A DNA stretch of 64,000 nucleotides from Octopus vulgaris (Eukaryota). This document shows positions 1 through 59,459 of the stretch, in pieces (position 1 is the stretch's first letter; every line of letters starts with the position of its first letter). Below the pieces are notes generated by a model. It was given only the letters and a program-made list of their open reading frames with translations. It made no database searches and was not told the origin of the DNA. A program made the position numbers and the translations under genes. The stretch covers positions 115,134,001 through 115,198,000 of the forward strand of contig OX597817.1 of NCBI GenBank assembly GCA_951406725.2, read 5' to 3'.

Positions 1-1065
1 CATATACTTTTATTAAAAAATAAGTTTTAAATAATTGCTTACTGTACATTGAATATAAGCAGATCATTGCACTCTCTCATAAATTTATCCTCTTTTATTA
101 GTCAGAAAATATTTCTTTCACCAAAGTTATCTGAAAAAAAAAACTGAAAGAAGAAAACACATTACAAAGATTACCAATATAATTTTTATCAATAATTTTA
201 CATTTAATTCTCAGTCTGACAAGACATACTTTAAGGCATCTTTGGTATTTGAATAAAACCTGTATTCTGTTCCGTTGCAATAAAATGGTATGGAAACAAT
301 TTGAAAGGAACTTTCTTCAATATTTATTACTACTTTTTATTTTCACTCAGGAAAAAAAAAAAAAAACACTTCTCGTAGAAATGTTGTTTATACCTTACTT
401 TCGTTCAAGTAATTTTTAACATTTACAATCTTTTTCTTTGTATCTCCAACATTTTCAGTCTGAAAAATAATGTGATTTTTTTCAGTGTTCTGCGATAAAT
501 CTAAAAGGGTAAAGAAATAAGCAGTTGATAACAGGTATCTATTATATGTTGCAAACTTATAAAAAGAAATTAGATCGTGTTAAGAAAAGAGCAAACATTC
601 TTTAAAATAGCTGCAGTATCGTTACCAATATTCACTTGATAATTTAGAATTGGTTTGAACAAGTTAAAAGTGTAATAATAGTGTGTTTGATTCAGCGGTT
701 ATACACTACCATATCTGCAATAATTTTCAATTTCCTGCTATGCAGACGCAGCTTCGTGAACTTTAGAGCAATGACAAACAAATATATATTCTAAAATACA
801 TATATTTTAGAATAAAATTCGAGCTTAAAATGGCCTGGCGAATAAAGCATAAGGCAGACAACAGATAGAGTCGAATTAAGATCTTTGAGGTTCTTGGGCT
901 ATATACAGTGTAGAGCCTGCAGGAATATTTTCAATGGGAATGATGTTTTCTTCTTTGTGTGATTCATGCATGCATGCATGCATACATACATACATACATA
1001 CATACATACATACATACATGCAGACATGCATGCATGCATACATACATGCATACATACGTACACAC

Positions 1066-2955: not shown

Positions 2956-4749
2956 TGTTGTGTCATCCAATCATTAATCCGATGGACTTCGTAACATACT
3001 CCTATAATCTTACATTTCATATCGGACTTGCTGACTGGAAGTACATTATTTCTTTACTGATGGAGTTACTATATAGGCTCGGTCAGCTAGGTAGTGAAGA
3101 ACAAAAAACGAAACAAAAAATGCGAGACGGAAGGAAGAGTTTTCCCCCCGCCATATACGATTCCAGCTTGTTCGTCATGTAGCGGAAGGAGTGTGACTTG
3201 ATAATTACTTTTGAAACTTAGAGTATAGAAAAACTTGCAGTCATATAACAAATCCGATAAATAAGTTTCTTCCAATTTTTCACAACCGAAGATTTGCTAA
3301 AGTTGAAACATGATTTGTTAGATCAGACACAGTTACTGTTTTTCCATTTATGCATGTACATTTCAGTGCTGAAAAGTTCGTGTCAGCAAAAAGTGAACCT
3401 ATTTCAATAAAATTAAAATTTGATTTACTTCTAGTTCTCCTCGCGTGGAATTATTATTTCGAGCAGGGCAATGTCTTTTGAGAACATTGGCATTTTCAAA
3501 CTTTATTGATATAATTTAGAAATATTTTATTTTAGCAATTATCTTTCCTATTCTATTATTTACGGAAATACCTTTCACTTGACATCTCACACTTTATGAG
3601 TCAGATTGAGTCAGGTAAATGTATCTTGTCCAAAACCCTAAAGCTGTAGAAATTCACTGAATTGCTATCTTATCTATTCAACTATAGACCATTTGTAGCT
3701 TGTGATAGGTCTTCTTTAATATCTCTATTTGTAGTGCTCATTGGTTCTCGTTATCATTAATCCTTTCAACAAATATACTGATATCACTCAAAACATTGGC
3801 CCCAATGTTTATTTCATATTAGGTCCCATTTGATTGATTACATGAAAGTCTGTTCCGTAATTTCAGAAACTACGGAAAATAAATAAAACTAAAGTCCAGA
3901 TTATACATCAAGATAAATTTGCTTATATTTCCTCACCGAAGCTTTGAATTGCCGGTTAGTTGGATATAAGGTATATTATTGAAGAGAATTCAACATATAA
4001 TTGGAAAAGCTGGGTACGCACTCGAATATTCATGCCTTTTTCACCACATCTTTCTTGTTCCCTTTCGTTTGAGAGATTAGTTCCTCGTCTGCGATAAAGA
4101 TGAGTGATAAGATGTGAGAAGCGCACAAAGCTATCCATAGAATTCGTATAAAATGATATCTAATTGTGATTATATAAAGGCATATATAGCGTTAATATCA
4201 AAACCTGATTCTAAAGATTTTTCATGACTTGGCCTATTTGTGCATTTTGGAATTTAAAATACACACGACTTTTTCAAATGTAATAGAAGTCAAATTATTC
4301 TAAGATTCTTAAGAATTGGGCATGGAATTATTTCGCTAAGTGTCATCTTTATTCTTAATACTTAAGTTATTTGCCTTTCAGTTTTGATAATCAGATATCA
4401 TAATATCCATTATACTTCTTTAATAACACTCCCAGGGTCTTATAGATAAAACCGTTCATTGCAAATCTATAAATAAATCTTTAAGTTAATATTTTCTTCC
4501 AACTATTTTCAAACACCAACGCAATAGTGAAAGAAATAATGCAATAAATATTCATAAATACTGATTCGAATGTTATTCGTTTCTTAATTTTTTTCTTTAT
4601 GTAGGAATATGTCTCAACTATTTAATTTAATTATCAATTTTATTTGAGCTCCCTTTTGTAATGCAAATTTTCTTCACCTATTCATATCAAACTTTCTATA
4701 AATGTGGATGTCATTTTCTATCAGTTTCAAATTATAATAAGGACATTTT

Positions 4750-6550
4750 CTCATTGCATACTGTTGGGAAAATGAACTTATTCAAAAACTATTCGAAAAG
4801 AAAAAAGACTTAATAAAAATCAAAATGCACAACGTATTAAAAATATTCAATAAATTGTATATTGGAATATACATTAACCATGTAAAAATTTGAGAAAGAT
4901 TATATTACAGGACTGGTTTACGAATAATAGGTAGTTAAATATTAACTGAGTTATATCCTGTAAATAAAAATATCTTTTAAAAACCTCTCTCACTAATGTT
5001 CTATTGGATTTATAAACAATTTGGTGTATCTCTGGATAGAACTCTTAAATAATATCTGTAATGTAGTGATACCTGATCTTTTGAAACAAACTATATATGA
5101 TGCAGTGTTTCTTGAATTATCGGTATATATACAAATATAGTTTAGTTACATAAAAGTACTTTTGATGGCTTTAATATTTTATTGCAGAACTATCATTTTA
5201 TATGTGCCAGATTGTGTGGTGTGTTTGTAAATGTATTCTGCCGGTCTTGTGACTTTGGAAAGAAAGATATACCGTAAATGGTACTTCCTGTATTTATCGT
5301 TGCTATGGCTTGCGCCAGTGTTATTTTTTCGAGTCGTTAATTTTCATGGAGTACTTGTAAACCGATTCAAGCTGATTCATGACTTCTGCTGTTGTTTGAT
5401 GGCGCCCGCACCTTTCGACCGACTTTTGAATTTTTCATATATACATTTCTTTTGTAGCTTGTTTAACTTATTTAAGTCGATGGGGAGAGTAATTTGGGCT
5501 GATTTTATTTGAATTTCTTGTAAGTCCAGTACAAACACATACAAGCATTTTCTTGCTTAGTAAGTTAAATTTAACTTATGAATACTTATTTATGAATAAT
5601 AATTTTGATTCGTAATCCGCACGAAGAGGCCAGTCCCTACATTATTAAAGATTTGGCTCAAAAGACAATATATATACATATATAAAGAAAATTCCCCAAA
5701 ATATGTCACATTAGGCGCCCACACAAAACATCTATAGGAACTTAGGTTTTTTAGAGATTAGATCCATTAACCAGTTCAGAAGAAGGTATTCTATTTTAGT
5801 CGAAAATTTTTTCTTTAGAAGAATGTTGATTATCCCGCTAACTCAAATGAAAAGCAAAATAATAATTACTAAGAAGAAATAAAATCACAAAAAGGATTGC
5901 TAGTTAATCGTTTCCTGTCTATTTATGTTGTGATGTCAGTAGCTAATAGAAACTGGCATATTTCTATTAAGGAAAGACCTGCAAAAAGGGGCATACAAGC
6001 GTAACTTCATTATTACTTAATAATTGCTATAAGTTATTCGGTGATTTTCCCTGAAAATCTTTTTGCAAGCTTATTGAATATTGTTGGAGAATTTTGATTG
6101 GATTTGATAGCTTTTTTTCTTACATAATGGTGAATATTGCTGTTTTGATTTTATTAAATATTTCACTGGCCTCCATTATTTAATAAAAGAATCTTTTATA
6201 CTGCTAATTGTCTTTTTGAATTATTAATCTATTATAATTTCTTTTCATTTTTTGTTGAATAAAGCAATTAATAATTCATTCGATTTAAAATTATAGCCTC
6301 CACCTTTATAATACAATGAATTATCATATTTTCTTAAAGATTTGATTTTGGTTTATTACTTCCAGCATATTCCTCTGATAATAGAATACTATCAGCCTTT
6401 CAGAAATGTCATTTTTACATCAAGGTTACTTGTCATAAAGAGTGAAAGATGTTTACGATATTTTAATTATATTCTTAATTAAAAAGGTTCTACCAAAATT
6501 TATTATAATCAATCATTTTACAAGAATGTTGAGAACTGATTTGTAGCTAT
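4750..6550 (-). pseudogene. Very old, heavily decayed PLE-like RT/GIY-YIG remnant
   Basis: Weak motifs in the expected order on minus: NLDVKM (about 6420), LYYKGG (about 6305), KSNQNSPTIFNKLAKRFS (about 6080), IYT...SYIVCFKR (about 5100). Confidence 0.3.
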
Positions 6551-8143: not shown

Positions 8144-8596
8144 TATTGAGACCGTCGGTTCTGATGCACAAATGAACGAAGCTAGAGTATTGACTATAGA
8201 TTACGTGCTCTCGGTAAAATGTTGGAAGGAAATCCAGTTGTATCTCAAAATGTGATCCTTACTTTGTTCGCAGGAAGTAAGTTAATCACTCAAAAATATG
8301 AAACACTTCACCAGCTGTGATGTCATAAATTATTGGAGCTCATTCCAGACATTGATTTCTCAATGTAAAGTGTGAAAACCGACTTTATATATGCATTCTT
8401 TGTTCGACACTCTAGCCGTAGAGAAGCATGCTTTTCTCATCTAACAGATCTGGTATGTTGTTCGTGTCTTAGTTTTAGGAACGAAATTTGAAAATTGGCA
8501 CACGCTGCGTAGAGAATGCACGGGGCCTGGATTTATTTGTGGAAAAGGACATATAATTTAGTAGAGTTTATAGTATTGCTCAAATAAGTAATATGA

Positions 8597-8819
8597 TATT
8601 GGTTTCAAACTTTGGCACAAGGCCAGCAATTTCGGGGTGTGTGTAAGTTGTAAGTCAATTACTACAAAATCAATGTCCAACTGGTACTTATCTTTATCGA
8701 GCCCGGAAGTATGAAAGGCAAAGTCTACCTCGGTGGGATTCGAACTCACAACGTAAAGACAGAAGGAATACCGCTAGGCATCTTGCCTGGCATACTAATG
8801 ATTCTGTCAGCTCGCCGCC

Positions 8820-8822
<3 letters not shown>
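8597..8822 (-). mobile_element. tRNA-derived SINE, family A
   Basis: Reverse complement gives ggcggcgagctgacagaatc...gagttcgaatcccaccgaggtagactttgcctttcat...gataagtacc. Confidence 0.85.
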
Positions 8823-8885
<63 letters not shown>

Positions 8886-13179: not shown

Positions 13180-15175
13180 AACGTTGTATTTCGGGATGTT
13201 CATTTAACAATTTTTTGCCAGATAAACACACGCACAATATATTTTTTCTTCACTCGTTTATTGCTGTTCTTACTTTATTATTTTAACTCATGTCCATAGT
13301 CACATATCTGTGACCTCTTCAGTGACACTTTTCGTTTCGTGTGTGTTCTAGATCCACTTAGACCATTTTGTTCTTCTAAGATGTGTATCCTTATGTGCGC
13401 ATGCGTTTATGTCTTTGCGTGTGCGTGTGCGCGCGCGCGTGTGTATGTGCGTATGTGTGTGTATGCTTGTGTGAGTGTCACATTTTTTAGCAGTAGTGTG
13501 GCTTTCCCTTCAACCTCAACTTCTCACCCCATTGTACTGCTGCTGTCTTAAGGAATATGGTAAGTTCCTGTATTCATCTGTGTACGTGTGTTCGCCACGG
13601 TGTTGCCATCGTGGTAGTTGCTGTTGTTACAGCCATCGTCGTCACGGCCGCTGCTGTCGTTGTTAATTGTGTTGTTGGCATTGTTATGGCCGTCCATGAA
13701 ATTTCTTGTGTGTGTATGAATTCGCTTTGTATGTTGTATGTATCTATGTCCTTTATATACCTTCATTTATTTATTATATGTCTCTCTATTTTTTTTATAT
13801 TTATCACAGGTATGTAACAAATATATATCTCTATATATTTATTTATCTATTTATCTATTTATTATTTTTTATACATCTATCTCTATTTCTCATAAGTAAC
13901 ACAAGTAAATGCATATATGTCTATTGTGTGTGCATTATCCTGTATGTTTCTGTATATTATTTACGATTTTTGTCCCTCTCTCTTCTCATCCGTTCGGTCT
14001 TTAGCCATGTGGTGTAATGGTGGGTGTTACTGTTCCATTCGTGATTTCTATTTAGGCACGGTCTGTCTACTGTTATATGTGTATCCTTTGTGATCTGTCT
14101 AAGTGTCGTGTCACTTCTATGTGTCAATAGTACTTTAATCTCTATGCTATTAATTGGGCCTCCATGTTCTGCCTGAGTATGTTGGTAGAGCACTAACGAG
14201 CTTTTCCCTTCTTTGAGCTCTCGCCAATGTTCACCTATACACTCTCCTATGCTGTGTGCAGTCTCCCCAATATAGATAGTTGTCATGTTTCTACAACCGT
14301 CCCTCAGTACATCGTAAGCTAATACTATATTCCTAAACTTAGTTAACCCGTGGTTTCATCCTACATAGAACACAATTGTACTCCGTACATGGGGACTTAT
14401 CAAAGGGACAGGTATTGCAGATTAGGGTTTTAAAGGGGCGCTAGGCCTCTCTACTACTTTAATTTGTCGATTAGCCTTACTTAACGTTTTCCTAAAAAGA
14501 TATGACACTGGTATTTTTTGTTGTCATACCAAGTGTTGGCATTATTTATATTATTACTGGTCCTTTCTGTGCTGGTTCAGGAATTGCTCCTGTACAGCGG
14601 GCAGATCGCTTTAGCATCACTATCTATGATGGCTTTGGACTTAGTCCTGGCTCCTTTGTACACTCTAATCCTGTCCCTCTGGTTGTAACCAGAGAAGTGC
14701 ATGTAACCAGAGAAGTGTTGTATGTGCCTTATTAATTCCACAGGGTCGCACATGCGATACACATTCATCATCAGTATCACGAAGTCCCTTATGAGAATGT
14801 TTCTTTTTTTGAGGTCTTAGGACAGCAGCAGCACAATGGGGTGAGAGAATGGGGCTGAGGAGAAGGCCTCATTGGTGCTAAAAACTATGACACACACACA
14901 CACACAAGCATACACACAACGCACACAAACACACACGCACGCACACACACCACACACGCATACATACACACAAACAAGGACACAAACACATGTGCACATA
15001 AGGATACATATCTTAGAAGAAGAGAATGGAGTAAGTGGAGCAAGAACACACACGAAAACGAAAAGAGTCATTGAAGAGCTCACAGATGTGTGACGAAAGT
15101 GAATAATAAACATATAGTGCGTGTGTTTATTTGGCAAAAAAAGAAATAAATACCATCCTGAAATACAACAATATA
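13180..15175 (-). mobile_element. 5'-truncated Penelope-like element with inverted pseudo-LTR
   Basis: Coding remnant 13957-14815; terminal repeat 13180-13552 recurs inverted at 14815-15175; both carry HHR remnants ((C/T)TGAAGA-G-(G/C)TCACA-GATR-TGTGAC, with GAAA kept at 15095). Confidence 0.85.
13957..14815 (-). pseudogene. PLE RT thumb, Cys-rich linker and GIY-YIG endonuclease (frameshifted)
   Basis: IYIGETAHSIGECIGEH...LYQH...EH...LRQIT...PCLNRNHEW; upstream IKVVERP...CPFDKSPCTEYNCVLC and SGYNQRDRIRVY. Confidence 0.85.
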
Positions 15176-16854: not shown

Positions 16855-16970
16855 TTATGTTTGTCTGCCCACCATCACTTGACCACCGATGCTAGTGTAT
16901 TTATGTGTCCGTAAGTTAACAGATCTGCAAAAGAGACCGATAGAATAAGTACTAGGCTTACAAACAATAA
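16590..16970 (+). mobile_element. SINE family B with internal (AT)n
   Basis: ggttcagtcccactgcgtggcac...ggaaactgaaagaa head and gagaccgatagaataagtact tail; cut off by a family D insertion. Confidence 0.85.
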
Positions 16971-17170
16971 TTATTTACATTATTTAGATTTGACGGATTT
17001 TTGTCCTCATCTTGTTTGTTGTTAACACAACGTTTCGGCTGATATACTCTCCAGCGTTCATCAGGTGTCTTGGGGAAATTTCGAACTTGGGTTCTTATTC
17101 CTAAGGTATTTCTCGATGTTGTTGTTGTTGTTGTTGTTCTTCTTCTTCTTCTTCTTCTTCTTCTTCTTCA

Positions 17171-21683: not shown

Positions 21684-22569
21684 TACACGCACACACGTGT
21701 GTATGTGTATGTGAATGTGTGTGTATGTGTGTGTGTTTGCGTTTATGCACGCCGAGAAAAACAAATACATACTTAAAGGATACTTTGCGTTTATTATGAT
21801 TTTTCTTTAATTATATTTGTTTAAAAAGCAATAAACACTAGAAAAATGTACAATATTTAGAAAAATTCTGTTTTTATTCATTGATTTTAATGACATAAAC
21901 ATGCATTTTATGTAAGAAATCATAGAAATGCATTATATTTGTGTAAGTGCACTACTTTTTAAATGTAGTCTTGACGTTACTGCTACGACATGCAACATTT
22001 CCTTTGAAAGGGAGAAAACATTTGTTATTACATTGAGATGGAAATTTGTCCGTTTTATTAAATTACACTCGTCTCTCGTTCTCTTCTCTCTTTGTCTAAG
22101 CAATAATCCCATCAGTTCTGCCTCTGAAGCCGCTATGTTTGCTAAAGTGGTTGTGACAGTTTGTTTGGGATGTAATTAGACTTGCGATCTTTAAGACAAT
22201 ACACTCAGACTCATTCACATAAAAACATCACACGTTCAAGCCAAAGCTATTTCCCCTTACTCATCAGGCTGTCAAAATCCAACACTTAAAGTGCGATCAA
22301 CGCTAAAACTACTTTCGCCATTGTCACTGCTACCACCACCACCACCACCACCACCACCACATTATTTACAAAAAGTCCCCATCAATGACAAAGCTATTGT
22401 TAATAACTAACTGCTGACCTTCAGAATAACTAGCAAGGATGCCCATCACCACAACTACTAACATTTCAATATTTTAATTCATACATACACACACATAAAC
22501 ACTCACACACACACACATATATACGTACAAATACACATACATACGTACATACTTACAAATACATATCTA

Positions 22570-22723
22570 CATTATTTACAATTGACGGATATTTGTCCTC
22601 AACTTTCTTGTTGTTAACACAACCTTTCGCCTTCATCAAGTGTCTTGGGGAAATTTCGAACCTGGCTATTTCAAACCTGGGTATTCCTAAGGTATTTTTC
22701 GATGTTATTATTATTATTATTAA

Positions 22724-22820
<97 letters not shown>

Positions 22821-23090
22821 TTTATTATCGAACTCGTAATCTTAGGATTAATAGCCCGCGTTCTTAACCACTACGCCATATCCCCGTGGGCAATTATGGA
22901 GTGAAGCTTAGGGCTTATAAATCTAATATTCTCCTATCCATCCTTCATACCGGTTCCCATATGCTGTTCATATCTGCACTCGGTCTGCTTAGGAGATTGT
23001 TGTGTCCCGGCATAGGTGCTGCTTCTTTTAGTTTTCGTATTTTCCAGTGATGTTCTCTGTCTATTATAAATAATAATGATAATAATAATA

Positions 23091-23144
<54 letters not shown>

Positions 23145-23163
23145 GTGATGGTGATGGTGATGG

Positions 23164-23206
<43 letters not shown>

Positions 23207-23417
23207 AACAACAACAACAACAACAACAACAGCACCGAAAAATACCTTAGGAATGAGAACCCAGGTTCGAAATTTCCCCAGGACACCTAATGAAGTCTGG
23301 AGGGTATATCAGCCGAAAAGTTGTGTTAACAATAAACAAGAAGAGGACAAATATCCGCCAATTGAAAATAATGTAAATAATGTACATAATTCATCATCTC
23401 TTAAATATAGAACTGTA
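22570..23417 (-). mobile_element. PLE family D: GIY-YIG C-terminus, tRNA-like module, SSR and HHR repeat, plus inverted copy
   Basis: Minus 23068-22945 IIDREHHWKIRKLKEAA...LLSRPS...IWEP; tRNA-like 22885-22826; (AAT)n; HHR with stem II deleted at 22616-22654; inverted plus-strand repeat 23070-23417 with mutated HHR at 23282-23327. Confidence 0.8.
22826..22920 (-). promoter_or_regulatory. Putative Pol III promoter (TATA, A box, B box) inside the PLE
   Basis: A box TGGCGTAGTGG (22878-22868), B box GAGTTCGAT (about 22838-22830), TTATAA at 22915-22920, about 30-35 nt upstream of the predicted tRNA +1. Confidence 0.55.
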
Positions 23418-23898: not shown

Positions 23899-24120
23899 TA
23901 TTTCTTTACTATCCAAAAGGGGCTAAACACAGAAGGGACAAACAAGGACAGACAAACGGTTTAAGTCGATTACATCAACACCAGTGCGTAACTGGTACTT
24001 AATTTATCGATCCCGAAAGGATGAAACGCAAAGTCGACCTCGGCGGAATTTGAACTCAGAACGTAACGGCAGACGAAATACGGCTACGCATTTCGCCCGG
24101 CGTGCTAACGTTTTTGCCAC
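23899..24120 (-). mobile_element. SINE family A
   Basis: Near full-length reverse complement of the 53402-53630 copy. Confidence 0.9.
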
Positions 24121-25336: not shown

Positions 25337-26066
25337 CTGGAAGAATAGTTTGCACGCCGGGCGAAATGCGTAGCCGTATTTCGCCTGCCGTTACGTTCTG
25401 AGTTCAAATTCCACCGAGGTCGACTTTGCCTTTCATCCTTTCGGGGTTGATTAAATAAGCACCAGTTACGCACTGGGGTCGATATAATCGACTTGATCCC
25501 TTTGTCTGTCCCTGTTTGTCTCCTCTATGTTTAACCCCTTGTGGGTAATAAAGAAATAGGTATTTCGTTTGCCGCTACGTGCTGAGTTCAAGTTCCGCCG
25601 TGGTCGACTTTGCCTTTCATCCTTTCGGGGTCGATAAATTAAGTACCAGTTACACACTGGTGTCGATATAATCGACTTAATCCGTTTGTCTGTCCTTGTT
25701 TGTCCTCTCTGTGTTTAATCCCTTGTGGTTAGTAAATAAATAGAAATAGGTATTTCGTCTGCCGCTACGTTCTGAGTTCGAATTCCGCCGTGGTCGACTT
25801 TGCCTTTCATCCTTTCGGGGTCGATTAAATAAGTACCATTTACGCACTGGGGTCGATATAATCGACTTAATCCGTTTGTCTGTCGTTGTTTGTCCTCTCT
25901 GTGTTTAACTCCTTGTGGGTAGTAAAGAAATAGAAATAGGTATTTTGTCTGTCTTTACATTCTGAGTTCAAATTCCGCCGAGGTCGACTTCGCCTTTCAT
26001 CCTTTCGGGGTCAATAAATTAAGTACCAGTTGCGTATGGAGGTCGATCTAATCGACTGGTCCCCCT
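25337..26066 (+). mobile_element. Head-to-tail array of four SINE family A units
   Basis: Units restart at GTATTT at 25560, 25750 and 25940, each directly after a GAAATAG tail. Confidence 0.92.
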
Positions 26067-26384
26067 AAAGGCAGTGCAACAGCATGGCTGTAGTCAAATA
26101 ACTCGAACAAATAAATAAAAGAGTAGCTTCAGAGATAACTTATGTTGATAAAGAGGTAGAAGAAAAGGAAATCTAGCTAGCTTCCAAGATATTTATGTTG
26201 ATAAATTAGAGGAAAAAAGAAAGTGTACACACACACACAAACACAAACACACACACACATAAATACATACATATACATACATACACATATATACATACAT
26301 GTACTCATACATACACACGCATAAGCGCACATATATACACACACAAATATACATACATATATCTTGTAACGACCATGAATGGAT

Positions 26385-26523
26385 GTACATTATTTACATT
26401 TGACGGATATTTGTCTTCATCTTTGTTGTTAACACAACGTTTCGGCTAATATTCCCTCTAGCCTTCATCAGGGGTCTTGGGGAAATTTCGAACCTGGGTT
26501 CTCATTCCTAAGGTATTTTTCGA

Positions 26524-26595
<72 letters not shown>

Positions 26596-26685
26596 GAGAG
26601 CACGCTACTAACCCCAAGATTCCGAGTTTGATTCCAGGCAGTGACCTGAATAATAATAATAATAATGATGATGATGATAATAATT

Positions 26686-26734
<49 letters not shown>

Positions 26735-26813
26735 TAATAACAACCAGATGAGGACAAATATCCGTCAAATGTAAATAATGTACATAATTCCTCATCTCTT
26801 AAATATAGAACTA
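26385..26813. mobile_element. PLE family D inverted pair
   Basis: Minus repeat 26385-26591 with HHR; plus copy 26592-26813 with tRNA-like 3' half, (AAT)n, HHR segment deleted, and shared tail gatgaggacaaatatccgtcaaatg. Confidence 0.85.
26431..26475 (-). ncRNA. Minimal type-I hammerhead ribozyme motif
   Basis: GACCC-CTGATGA-A-GGCTA-gagggaatat-TAGCC-GAAAC-GTT-GTGTT; perfect 5-bp stem II, one stem I mismatch. Confidence 0.8.
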
Positions 26814-52400: not shown

Positions 52401-53401
52401 ATTAAATACTAGATTCAATTTTACTGATTTAATCCCCATCCAAATTTCTGAGATTGGGTCCTTGTTAGAATGTATTATTTACATTATAATATAATTGTGT
52501 GTTATTAAGAAAAAATAATTTCTTATACAAACACTAGGATAAATTGTAGAGGGGAATAAACTGTATTAAATTGACTGGTCTTAAATTTAAGACCAGTCAA
52601 ATAAGACCTGTTATACTTAACAAGTCTTATTTTATCGAATTAGAGGAAAGACGAAAGAAAAAAGTTTACGTAGGTGAAATTTTGAATTTAGAACGTAAAG
52701 AGACATATCTAAACTTTAGAAATTGCATTTTTCATGTCTGGCGCGTTGCCAAATCTGCCATCTACAGCGATAATGAAGCAAACATTAAAAGTTACAAAAT
52801 TAGAAATAAAACTCTAAACGACGGAGATTTTTTTGGCAAGTACTTAATACTCATGACTGATTGTAGACATTTATCTTCCCAGCAGGCCTGCTAACATGAC
52901 ACTTTGCAGAATTTGTAAATTAACCGCACTATAAAAATATGTAAATAAAATATGAAAATAAGATTAGAAAATAAATAAATAAATAGATACCAAATCAGAA
53001 ACGAAACACTTAAATTTTCTTTATTGAATTATTTCAAAGTTAAAAGCATGGGCAAGAATTAGTGATACCATAAACTGTTTTATTTATTTTTAAGAAAAGA
53101 CATATATGTTCTATTTTGTTAACCTAATAGCATTTCTAGAAAGCTCTGCATAGGCAAAAATGATAGGAACTATGTTATAAGATGTTAGGTTCGTTCCCGA
53201 AATATCTGAGCTCCTGAGTTCAAATTTCATTGTGGTCATCTTAGATATTCATTCTATAATATTGGATAATACACTAAAGAACACTTCGACTTATTTCTCA
53301 TCAGCTGTAAATGACTAATGTACATAACTTTCCAGTGAACCACAAACATGGCAATGCAAATCACGGTTTGTAGTTGGCATAATTTATATAAATTATAGTT
53401 T

Positions 53402-53630
53402 AAGCGGCGAGCTGGCAGAGACATTAGCACGCCGGTCGAAATTCTTATCGGTATTTCATTTGCCGTTAAGTTCTGAGTTCGAATTCCGCGCAAGTTCGAC
53501 TTTGCCTTTCATCCTTTGGGGTCGATTAAATAAGTACCAGTTACGTACCGGGGTCAATGTAATCGAATGAATCCCCTTGTCCTTGTTTGTCCCCTCTATG
53601 TTTAGCCCCCTGTGGGCAATAAAGAAATAA
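53402..53630 (+). mobile_element. Full-length SINE family A
   Basis: gcggcgagctggcaga...GAGTTCGAATTCC...ctttgcctttcatcc...gtgggcaataaagaaata. Confidence 0.92.
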
Positions 53631-58223: not shown

Positions 58224-59459
58224 TCAGGTCATCCCATAAGTTCTGTCCGATTTTACCTTTTATAAAATTGAATGAAATTTAATAGTATTTTAAAATGTCT
58301 AATGGAATTAAAAGTTATTTTTATGCATTTGTATACATTTAAACTAATTAAATATTATTTTACAGAATATCAGAATTAAACTTTCCTTGATTAAAACTCT
58401 TTCTAACATGGAAGTATTTAAAAAGCATTTGAGGCACATAATGCTTTATGAGTACAAAAAAGGAAACTCTGCTGCCAAAATGACTCGAAACATACAATCA
58501 GTTTATGGGAAGAATGCTTGAATGAAAGAACTTGCAGAAGATGATTTGCAAAATTCAGAAGTGGAGATGTCAGCCTTGAAGATAAAGGTCGAACAGGACG
58601 TCCAGTTGAGTTTGATGATATTCTCCTTGAGGCATTACTTGAAGAAAATCCTGCATTATTATTTGAAGAATTGGCAATGAAGCTTAGTTCAAACCATACA
58701 ACTGTTCATCGTCATCTTCAACAATGTGGAAAGATTCCTAAACTTGGAAAATGGGTGCCTCATGAATTGTTCGAAAGCAACTACAAATCCCGAGTTGACA
58801 TCTGCTCTTCTTTCCATTCTCGCGAACTCATTTCACCCTTTTTGGATAGACTTGTGACTGGTGACAAAAATGGATCTTCTATTGAAGTGTTAAACGTCGT
58901 AAACAGTGGCTTGGTAAAAGGGAAAAGGCTCACCCACAACCGACACGGGAACTTCATGGAAAAAAAGGTTCTTCTCTCTATTTGGTGGGATTGCAAAAGA
59001 GTAATTAACTTTGAATTGTTACCACCTAATGCAACAATCAGTGCTCAAGTCTACTGTCAGCAATTAGAGCATTTTAACGAAGCTTTGAAGAAAAAAGACC
59101 CACTTTAGGGAATCGAAAAGGAGTGATGTTAAATCAGGACAATGCGCGACCCCATACTGCAAAGATCACATCAAAGAAGATCGACCTTGCGCCTTCAGAC
59201 TACCATTTGTTTCGAAGTTTACAGAATCATTTGGGGGACATAACTTTCGCAAGCCAGGAGGAGGTCGAAACTGACATTTCAAAGTTCTTCGCTTTGAAAC
59301 CAAAAGAGTTTTACATTGATGGGATTAAATGGCTTGTAAATAGATGGAAGTCATAGATAATCAGGGAAAGTACATTGATGATTAAATTTCAATTAAACAT
59401 AACATTTGATCACTTGTTTTCTTTATTCAAAATCGAACAGAACTTATAGGATGACCTGA
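58224..59459 (+). mobile_element. Decayed mariner (DD34D) transposon
   Basis: 31-bp TIRs TCAGGTCATCC(C/T)ATAAGTTCTGT(C/T)CGATTTT; ATG at 58408; WVPHEL, VTGD, QDNARPH and DLAPSDYHLF motifs; frameshifts and loss of the HPPYSP segment near 59182. Confidence 0.95.

Follow-up and report, generated by a model that had tools for sequence, protein, structure and literature searches.

A tRNA-Arg-derived head, likely an internal Pol III promoter, in the pseudo-LTR of a decayed Penelope/Poseidon-type element of Octopus vulgaris

A decayed element of the Penelope/Poseidon type in Octopus vulgaris carries in its pseudo-LTR a head derived from tRNA-Arg, which is likely, as judged from sequence, to be an internal promoter for RNA polymerase III (Pol III) with its start at the first base of a 6-nt leader (position -6). 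The head is an integral part of the Penelope-type element (PLE). The locus was analyzed within a 64-kb stretch of DNA (the window, to which all unlabelled coordinates refer), and copies of the family were searched for in the genome (2.8 Gb, 227 contigs).

On the minus strand of 22570..23417, the end of the PLE ORF is followed by a TATA-like motif, the head, an (AAT)n tract, a hammerhead repeat and a tail. The ORF 3' end (22915..23062, minus; about 90% identity to copies encoding RT and EN) is the end of a GIY-YIG endonuclease region, as proposed in the first-pass annotation; a 38-aa piece of it, searched by itself, gave no match in Pfam. The stop placed at 22945 had to be given up: this TGA (22947-22945, minus) is a decay stop private to the window copy, and the family frame runs past it to a TAA at 22917-22915 (minus), read as TTA TAA. 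The TATA-like motif TTTATAAG reported downstream of the ORF was confirmed (22914..22921, minus); its first and last bases lie 30 and 23 nt above the 5' edge mapped for the copies, and it overlaps the Leu-stop pair and contains the family stop codon. The tRNA-like sequence with A and B boxes was also found on the minus strand (22891-22827 with its leader). The leader, GCCCAC (22886..22891, minus), begins with G22891, the putative RNA start, and forms a small palindrome with the first head bases (22880-22892). The head itself (22827..22885, minus) aligns to host tRNA-Arg(ACG) genes, is truncated at its 3' end (the last ~17 nt are gone) and has its A box at 22878-22868 and its B box at 22835-22827 (both minus).

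The (AAT)n tract, of variable length, is the spacer between head and AUG (22706..22826, minus). It is followed by the rearranged ORF-start and hammerhead region (22601..22705, minus), with a broken minimal type I hammerhead in the sense arm (22644-22616, minus), and by the tail (22568..22600, minus), which ends in the first of two 3'-end clusters, a presumed RT start. A mixed trinucleotide repeat (23063..23232, unstranded) separates this arm from an inverted, 5'-truncated arm (23233..23417, plus) with an AUG at 23253 (plus), a broken hammerhead (23282-23327, plus) and a long tail to the second 3'-end cluster. All of the parts listed earlier, from the (AAT)n tract to the inverted copy, are therefore present, and both hammerheads of the locus have a broken core: the sense one reads TTGATGA, with a collapsed stem II and GAAAGGTT, and that of the inverted arm reads CTAATGA and GAAAAGTT. 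A second insertion comprises an inverted arm with an intact hammerhead core (26383..26526, minus; core at ~26431-26476) and a 5'-truncated head with (AAT)n and tail, from which the hammerhead part is deleted (26592..26813, plus); the link of head, (AAT)n and tail noted at the latter site does exist. A third hammerhead-tail copy lies at 16970..17119 (minus). Only the copies at ~26431-26476 and ~17.0 kb have an intact hammerhead core in the window.

The family was assigned by structure to the decayed Penelope/Poseidon-type PLEs. Its unit runs from the ORF stop with the TATA-like motif through leader, head, (AAT)n, AUG, in-frame hammerhead and tail to the rest of the ORF, and one copy (L049) is a full tandem of ORF end, head, (AAT)n, hammerhead, whole ORF and head. 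The single ORF encodes an RT and then a C-terminal GIY-YIG EN with a CCHH motif. Family copies are ~90% alike. Of 150 scored matches, L240 has the longest open frame (569 aa); this frame matched RVT_1 with E 2.7e-6, below the curated cut-off, and ended in a CVYSIPxSCGRLYKGET..H region; homologues of the ORF carry PF00078, PF28514 and PF26215. The Cys-rich linker between RT and EN, which marks Neptune/Nematis (PMC8557442), is absent from L240 and present in the control family L235. Traits of the Penelope/Poseidon type were found in the pseudo-LTR tandem (L049), the inverted 5'-truncated arm (49/90 copies) and the 30-40-bp tail. The start codon of the ORF is the AUG that lies past (AAT)n and ahead of the hammerhead; a peptide translated through the hammerhead aligns to the N-terminus of an 847-aa relative, P0003 (39%, 193 aa, E 1e-33); the ribozyme therefore lies inside the ORF, as in the anole element PAc. 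No younger sister family was seen among the 150 scored matches in each of two protein searches. Close relatives have 53-68% identity (P0001-P0013), and barnacle proteins belong to the cluster of P0006. The family also occurs in DNA contigs of two further organisms; no relative was found in viral contigs and no match in the PDB. A second PLE family, of the Neptune type and with young copies (13957-14355, minus; L233-L239), was used as a control for T runs; its open frames span 687-882 aa, with a Cys linker before the endonuclease.

That the head belongs to the element was established with samples drawn in different ways. A 24-nt head motif had 4327 exact genome matches against 0 for its reversed control, and the head is therefore not a chance sequence. 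Thirty loci were picked by RT protein alone (two overlap earlier loci); 22 of them reach the stop, and in 20 of these the head follows it, through the B box in one alignment. Flank and head were in register in 30/30 loci of an earlier set, for which the query contained the head. The head-copy sample comprised 90 of the 100 matches listed (of 4327), all on contig C1. The sample omits two inverted partners and the last eight matches, and it contains a few duplicates or neighbours. Copies with intact boxes occur both with the flank (L011, L006) and without it (L105). The PLE hammerhead or tail lay within 600 nt of the head in 78/90, and the other 12 shared no common body, save one duplicated pair. 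The earlier statement that the tRNA-like part is no chance SINE thus holds: the 20/22 RT-selected copies and the 78/90 heads rule out a chance SINE insertion into one copy. Solo and ORF-linked heads carry the same variants. As in SINE2 elements, dispersed short copies start with a tRNA-related head (74/90 begin at -8 or within the head); a non-autonomous lineage separate from its partner and sharing the 3' tail alone was not found.

The tRNA identity of the head rests on alignment to host tRNA genes, and that of the hammerhead on the minimal-hammerhead motif pattern. The head aligned to host tRNA-Arg(ACG) with a local score of 71 (maximum 45 in 2000 shuffles); of 30 further host tRNA genes, which represent few isotypes, the best reached 64. 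The comparison drew on 36 host tRNA loci with a small range of isotypes, Ser and Asn not among them; within that set Arg(ACG) scored best, and derivation from tRNA-Thr, -Ser or -Asn was set aside. At least 23 tRNA-Arg(ACG) motif matches are clustered within 20 kb elsewhere in the genome (G000:C2:211887730-211907126). The B box GTTCGATTC occupies tRNA positions 53-61, and both boxes are kept at tRNA spacing; the cloverleaf fold is lost, and the T and acceptor stems are poorly paired. Neither ARAGORN nor Rfam called a tRNA or a hammerhead, at this locus or in a well-kept copy. A functional tRNA was ruled out on these grounds (cloverleaf unrecognised by either program, fold not a cloverleaf). No A/B-box head was found in 79 distant relatives with a pattern that matches L105 and misses L006. 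A scan of 60 of these 79 with ARAGORN gave 0 genes and is uninformative, as this program misses the head of the present family too; inspection of L286 and L328 revealed none. There is therefore no cross-family correlation.

The 5' boundaries of the 90 head copies, scored with gaps, fell at +9..+22 (14), +1..+8 (30), -8..-1 (30), -20..-9 (1) and further upstream (15); 60/90 thus begin at -8..+8, and ten lie at +1. The rate of ends was 0.10/nt at -8..-1; immediately above this interval it fell to 0.005 and beyond that to 0.003, and over the hammerhead region it was 0.0015-0.003. In contigs of run X1, 100 loose ends at L049:2555 mapped to about -7; the leader palindrome blurs -7 versus -6 and adds to the +1 class. 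In three copies (L257, L270, L282), which carry unrelated ORF pieces in front, the start is precisely G-6. Among the copies anchored on the tail (n=70, partly the same loci), the head is present in 38, and three of those extend above it. Exact genome counts with 20 fixed letters each were 1027 for the flank (a 20-nt motif), 4327 for the head, 7341 for the hammerhead and 9662 for the tail. The template RNA very probably starts at -6, and the proposal of an RNA starting at the head is supported by this edge. L049 and L261 reach upstream of the start; therefore longer RNAs or template jumps exist.

At four loci (L257:1744, L270:2196, L282:1618 and L258:1928), ORF 5' fragments are joined to the head at -6/-5 and are followed by hammerhead and tail; such joins suggest that the RT, on completing a short RNA, switched to another template. 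The tail-to-ORF junction had 118 genome matches with up to one mismatch, and many other copies with this junction are ORF fragments plus a second pseudo-LTR. One candidate head-to-ORF copy, L242, was dropped as an inverted structure.

An edge of this kind might also be left by an RNase P-type cut, an RT stall or hairpin fold-back on a longer RNA. The inverted arm adjoins the head in 49/90 copies and is centred on the leader palindrome in 16/90; this palindrome could sharpen the 5' edge by fold-back, and the boundary is at +1 in 10/90. The arms centred on the palindrome suggest snap-back second-strand priming at the cDNA 3' end. Yet the edge lies at -6, not +1, and the +1 class is partly the reversed palindrome loop; non-inverted copies begin in the same 5' window as inverted ones, the three ORF-to-head junctions show the same edge, and the T and acceptor stems are poorly paired. 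Processing or stalling was accordingly rated very improbable as the origin of the edge. In L031, the element 5' end and its flank form a 934-bp inverted duplication (3238-4169 and 4849-5782) with 99% identity, which looks far younger than the ~90% identity among family copies.

If the edge is a transcription start, its position bears on the polymerase. From G-6 it is 13 nt to the A box TGGCGTAGTGG downstream and 30 nt back to the first T of the TATA-like motif, and in a type-2 Pol III promoter initiation is expected at such a distance before the A box. Most copies begin at the tRNA-derived head, and the RNA was therefore likely started by Pol III; the RNA from -6 is, on the sequence, probably a Pol III product. 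Alternatively, the TATA-like motif would drive a capped Pol II RNA from G-6, with the head as a captured SINE remnant or a downstream element. The 30-nt distance from TATA to start and the pyrimidine-purine start fit this reading, a capped RNA would solve translation, and T4-free ORFs occur without a head; for characterised PLEs, H3K4me3 or introns point to Pol II starts within the pseudo-LTR (PMC8557442). Against it, the tRNA stems are lost but the A and B boxes still stand at type-2 spacing downstream of the start, and the T-rich spacer of 15/17 relatives is missing here. An extra G before GCCCAC is absent in the three clean junctions, which is a weak point, since PLE RTs are not known to copy caps. 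Against the Pol III reading, the TATA-like motif may be a mere Leu-stop, and such motifs were found at only 11/30 host tRNA genes (background 14%). A Pol II promoter at this site was considered improbable.

The 3' ends of the copies could be scored in 48 of the 90; 25 lay at +30..43 and 20 at +61..76 nt into the tail. Two internal RT starts are reported for anole PAc (PMC11167929), and the two clusters match them, a pattern typical of priming by PLE RTs. Internal RT priming explains the short copies without the need for any terminator. Some copies that begin at the head (L059, L259, L278) run past the tail into the ORF. The earlier description of the RNA as short is therefore incomplete: its start at the head stands, no terminator follows the head, the ends coincide with the RT-priming clusters, and some head-started copies enter the ORF.

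The minimal type I hammerhead of the family is predicted to consist of CTGATGA, stem II and GAAACGTT, with stem I GACAC/GTGTT and a palindromic stem III; in relatives the core is shared but stem II differs. A short Pol III RNA, cut by this ribozyme and circularised like a retrozyme, could be proposed as the mobile template, given the minimal type I fold, the palindromic stem III and the intact core in 14/90 copies (L105 has an intact hammerhead), and schistosome SINE-like repeats work in this way (PMC6765202). But among the 70 tail-anchored copies a single one, itself an internal deletion, has its start no more than 12 nt from the predicted cut, whereas 57/70 run through the cut site to the (AAT)n tract. 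Copies cross the cut site uninterrupted; the RNA had therefore not been cut when it was copied, which agrees with PAc; insertion of the anole PLE does not need cleavage (PMC11167929). Head-to-tail monomer arrays were not noted in the sampled loci (informal count), and units bounded by hammerhead cleavage, as in non-LTR retrozymes, were not found. A retrozyme-like template was rated highly improbable, and the idea of a ribozyme-processed RNA found no support. A second 5' edge at the hammerhead cut, hinted at by 30 ORF-junction loci, was not borne out by the 70 tail-anchored copies. Cleavage would part the AUG from the ORF, and the hammerhead may have a regulatory role.

Pol III terminators (T4) were compared between host genes, the family and its relatives. 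Host tRNA genes end in T4 in 23/30 cases, against a background of 18%. The scan of the family covered 178 aligned pieces from 86 loci (132 kb); on the sense strand of the ~2.7-kb unit no position had a T4 conserved in at least 15% of copies, and 59 runs were observed versus 162 expected from dinucleotide shuffles. The Neptune-type family of the same genome, with similar T content, has 4-14 T4 runs per frame (7 loci), and related frames of at least 300 aa (n=58) have a median of 4.9 T4/kb, or 3.4/kb for the 26 with 20-25% T. A T4 lies between stop and hammerhead in 15/17 hand-picked relatives and is not conserved in the head-bearing family, of which two long natural copies (L031, L246) have no T4. 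Among 79 head-less relatives, four lack T4 in the matched span, including the closest, L286, and absence of T4 is therefore not diagnostic of a Pol III unit. Synonymous-codon shuffles of natural open frames gave no significant deficit (L240, 3 vs 3.1; L241, 1 vs 2.8, P=0.135), and G4 runs are scarce in the family as well. Pol III read-through of the whole unit would thus be permitted and modestly favoured. The closest relative fetched (L286:2610-4745) has an ORF of ~2 kb without T4, a T-rich spacer and no head; by comparison with it, the T4-free ORF may predate promoter capture. L328:4608-4800 resembles the head-bearing family in its spacer, rich in A and poor in T, and in a hammerhead that can be read as coding sequence; no head was found there.

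The following mechanism is proposed. TFIIIC would bind the A and B boxes, aided in tandem copies by the TATA-like motif, and Pol III would start at G-6 with no terminator ahead. The RT of the element would prime internally at the tail, as demonstrated in vitro for the anole PLE (PMC11167929), and would make a SINE-like solo copy of ~270 nt from any RNA with a -6 start. Such priming would account for the roughly fourfold excess of heads over the flank immediately upstream, and Pol III RNA combined with it would give rise to thousands of SINE-like solo copies. RNA that continues through the ORF into the next pseudo-LTR would yield ORF-bearing and tandem copies, and Pol III would make at least part of it; that Pol III makes the full-length template RNA is a possibility held with slightly less than even confidence. 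Protein would come from the uncapped long RNA or from Pol II read-through, the latter being an easy alternative source; uncapped RNAs of the retroelements R2 and L1Tc are translated (PMC6765202). It is rather unlikely that the Pol III full-length RNA doubles as mRNA. Equally tentative is the complete scheme, in which the captured tRNA promoter replaced the Pol II promoter and a ~2.7-kb Pol III RNA serves as template, as uncapped mRNA and as source of the SINE-like copies. The hammerhead would cut within the ORF, and only as a dimer or with the aid of a protein; it is therefore more likely to limit translation than to mature the mobile RNA. The head was likely donated by a tRNA-Arg SINE head or a tRNA retrocopy with an (AAT)n tail, captured in the spacer of a PLE whose ORF was likely already without T4.

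The element resembles Penelope/Poseidon PLEs such as anole PAc in its single ORF with RT and C-terminal GIY-YIG and no Neptune linker, its pseudo-LTR tandems, inverted 5'-truncated arm and tail ends ~35 nt apart, and its hammerhead inside the ORF start in an AT/ATT-rich context (PMC11167929, PMC8557442). It differs from its Penelope/Poseidon relatives in the first segment of the pseudo-LTR, a tRNA-derived A/B-box head in place of their T-rich spacer. TRIMp3 elements (Cassandra, Helenus, Ajax) likewise carry a Pol III promoter derived from a small RNA in the terminal repeat; they are, however, non-autonomous, non-coding LTR elements of 0.3-1.3 kb, whereas the octopus head sits in a protein-coding PLE, and the likeness is limited to promoter placement (PMC10886601). 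Sm-alpha and Sj-alpha of Schistosoma share the order of Pol III-type promoter and hammerhead in a short repeat, but are non-coding tandem repeats freed by cleavage, with no promoter-sharing autonomous partner named in the available text (PMC6765202); the solo units of the octopus do not differ from the 5' part of an autonomous PLE, and they are copied without being cut. Animal non-LTR retrozymes have a type I hammerhead from PLE pseudo-LTRs in common with it; they are tandem units cut at both ends and circularised, and the accessible portions of their descriptions mention no Pol III promoter (PMC7229834; bioRxiv 10.64898/2026.07.22.740005). R2 and L1Tc offer the precedent for translation noted above, are released from host co-transcripts by an HDV-like ribozyme and, in the same partial source, have no Pol III promoter of their own (PMC6765202).

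Octopus tRNA-derived SINEs, which would share a tRNA-Arg head and a SINE-like length with the present unit, are a possible donor of the head. These SINEs, OR1 and OR2, were reportedly described with a tRNA-Arg head by Ohshima and Okada in 1994. OR2 and OR1 are called CORE-SINEs (PMC4758252 and PMC4824008, respectively); in the present unit, by contrast, the head is followed by (AAT)n and then by PLE coding sequence, which leaves no space for a central domain. A PLE with a tRNA-derived promoter was not found in the literature searched. None is mentioned in the available parts of PMC8557442, PMC4209133, PMC7229834, PMC13282606, PMC8967140, PMC4758252, PMC3531059, PMC9223172, PMC4824008 and bioRxiv 10.64898/2026.07.22.740005. 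The short unit or the family may be catalogued under another name in Repbase, Dfam, SINEBase, the 1994 octopus SINE paper or the repeat library of PMC13282606.

Pol III promoters are known from non-autonomous retroelements. A coding PLE with a Pol III head in its own pseudo-LTR would challenge the rule, argued by the author for TRIMp3, that autonomous partners must use Pol II (PMC10886601). It would provide a concrete origin for tRNA-headed, hammerhead-bearing SINE-like repeats, for which an internally priming PLE need only capture a tRNA head. Pol III is not known to serve genomic parasites other than non-coding ones, e.g. SINEs. If the proposal is true, SINE and partner would be united in one sequence, with a route from PLEs to Pol III hammerhead repeats such as Sm-alpha, and Pol III transcription of a multi-kilobase natural ORF becomes testable. 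In practical terms, thousands of copies that annotators would take for SINEs are PLE ends.

Two further features were recorded in the window. A 187-aa frame at 58545-59108 (plus) presumably resembles a mariner/Tc1 transposase. Another abundant family of dispersed short repeats, unrelated to the head, occurs at 8594-8830, 23962-24119, 25342-26032 and 53392-53566.
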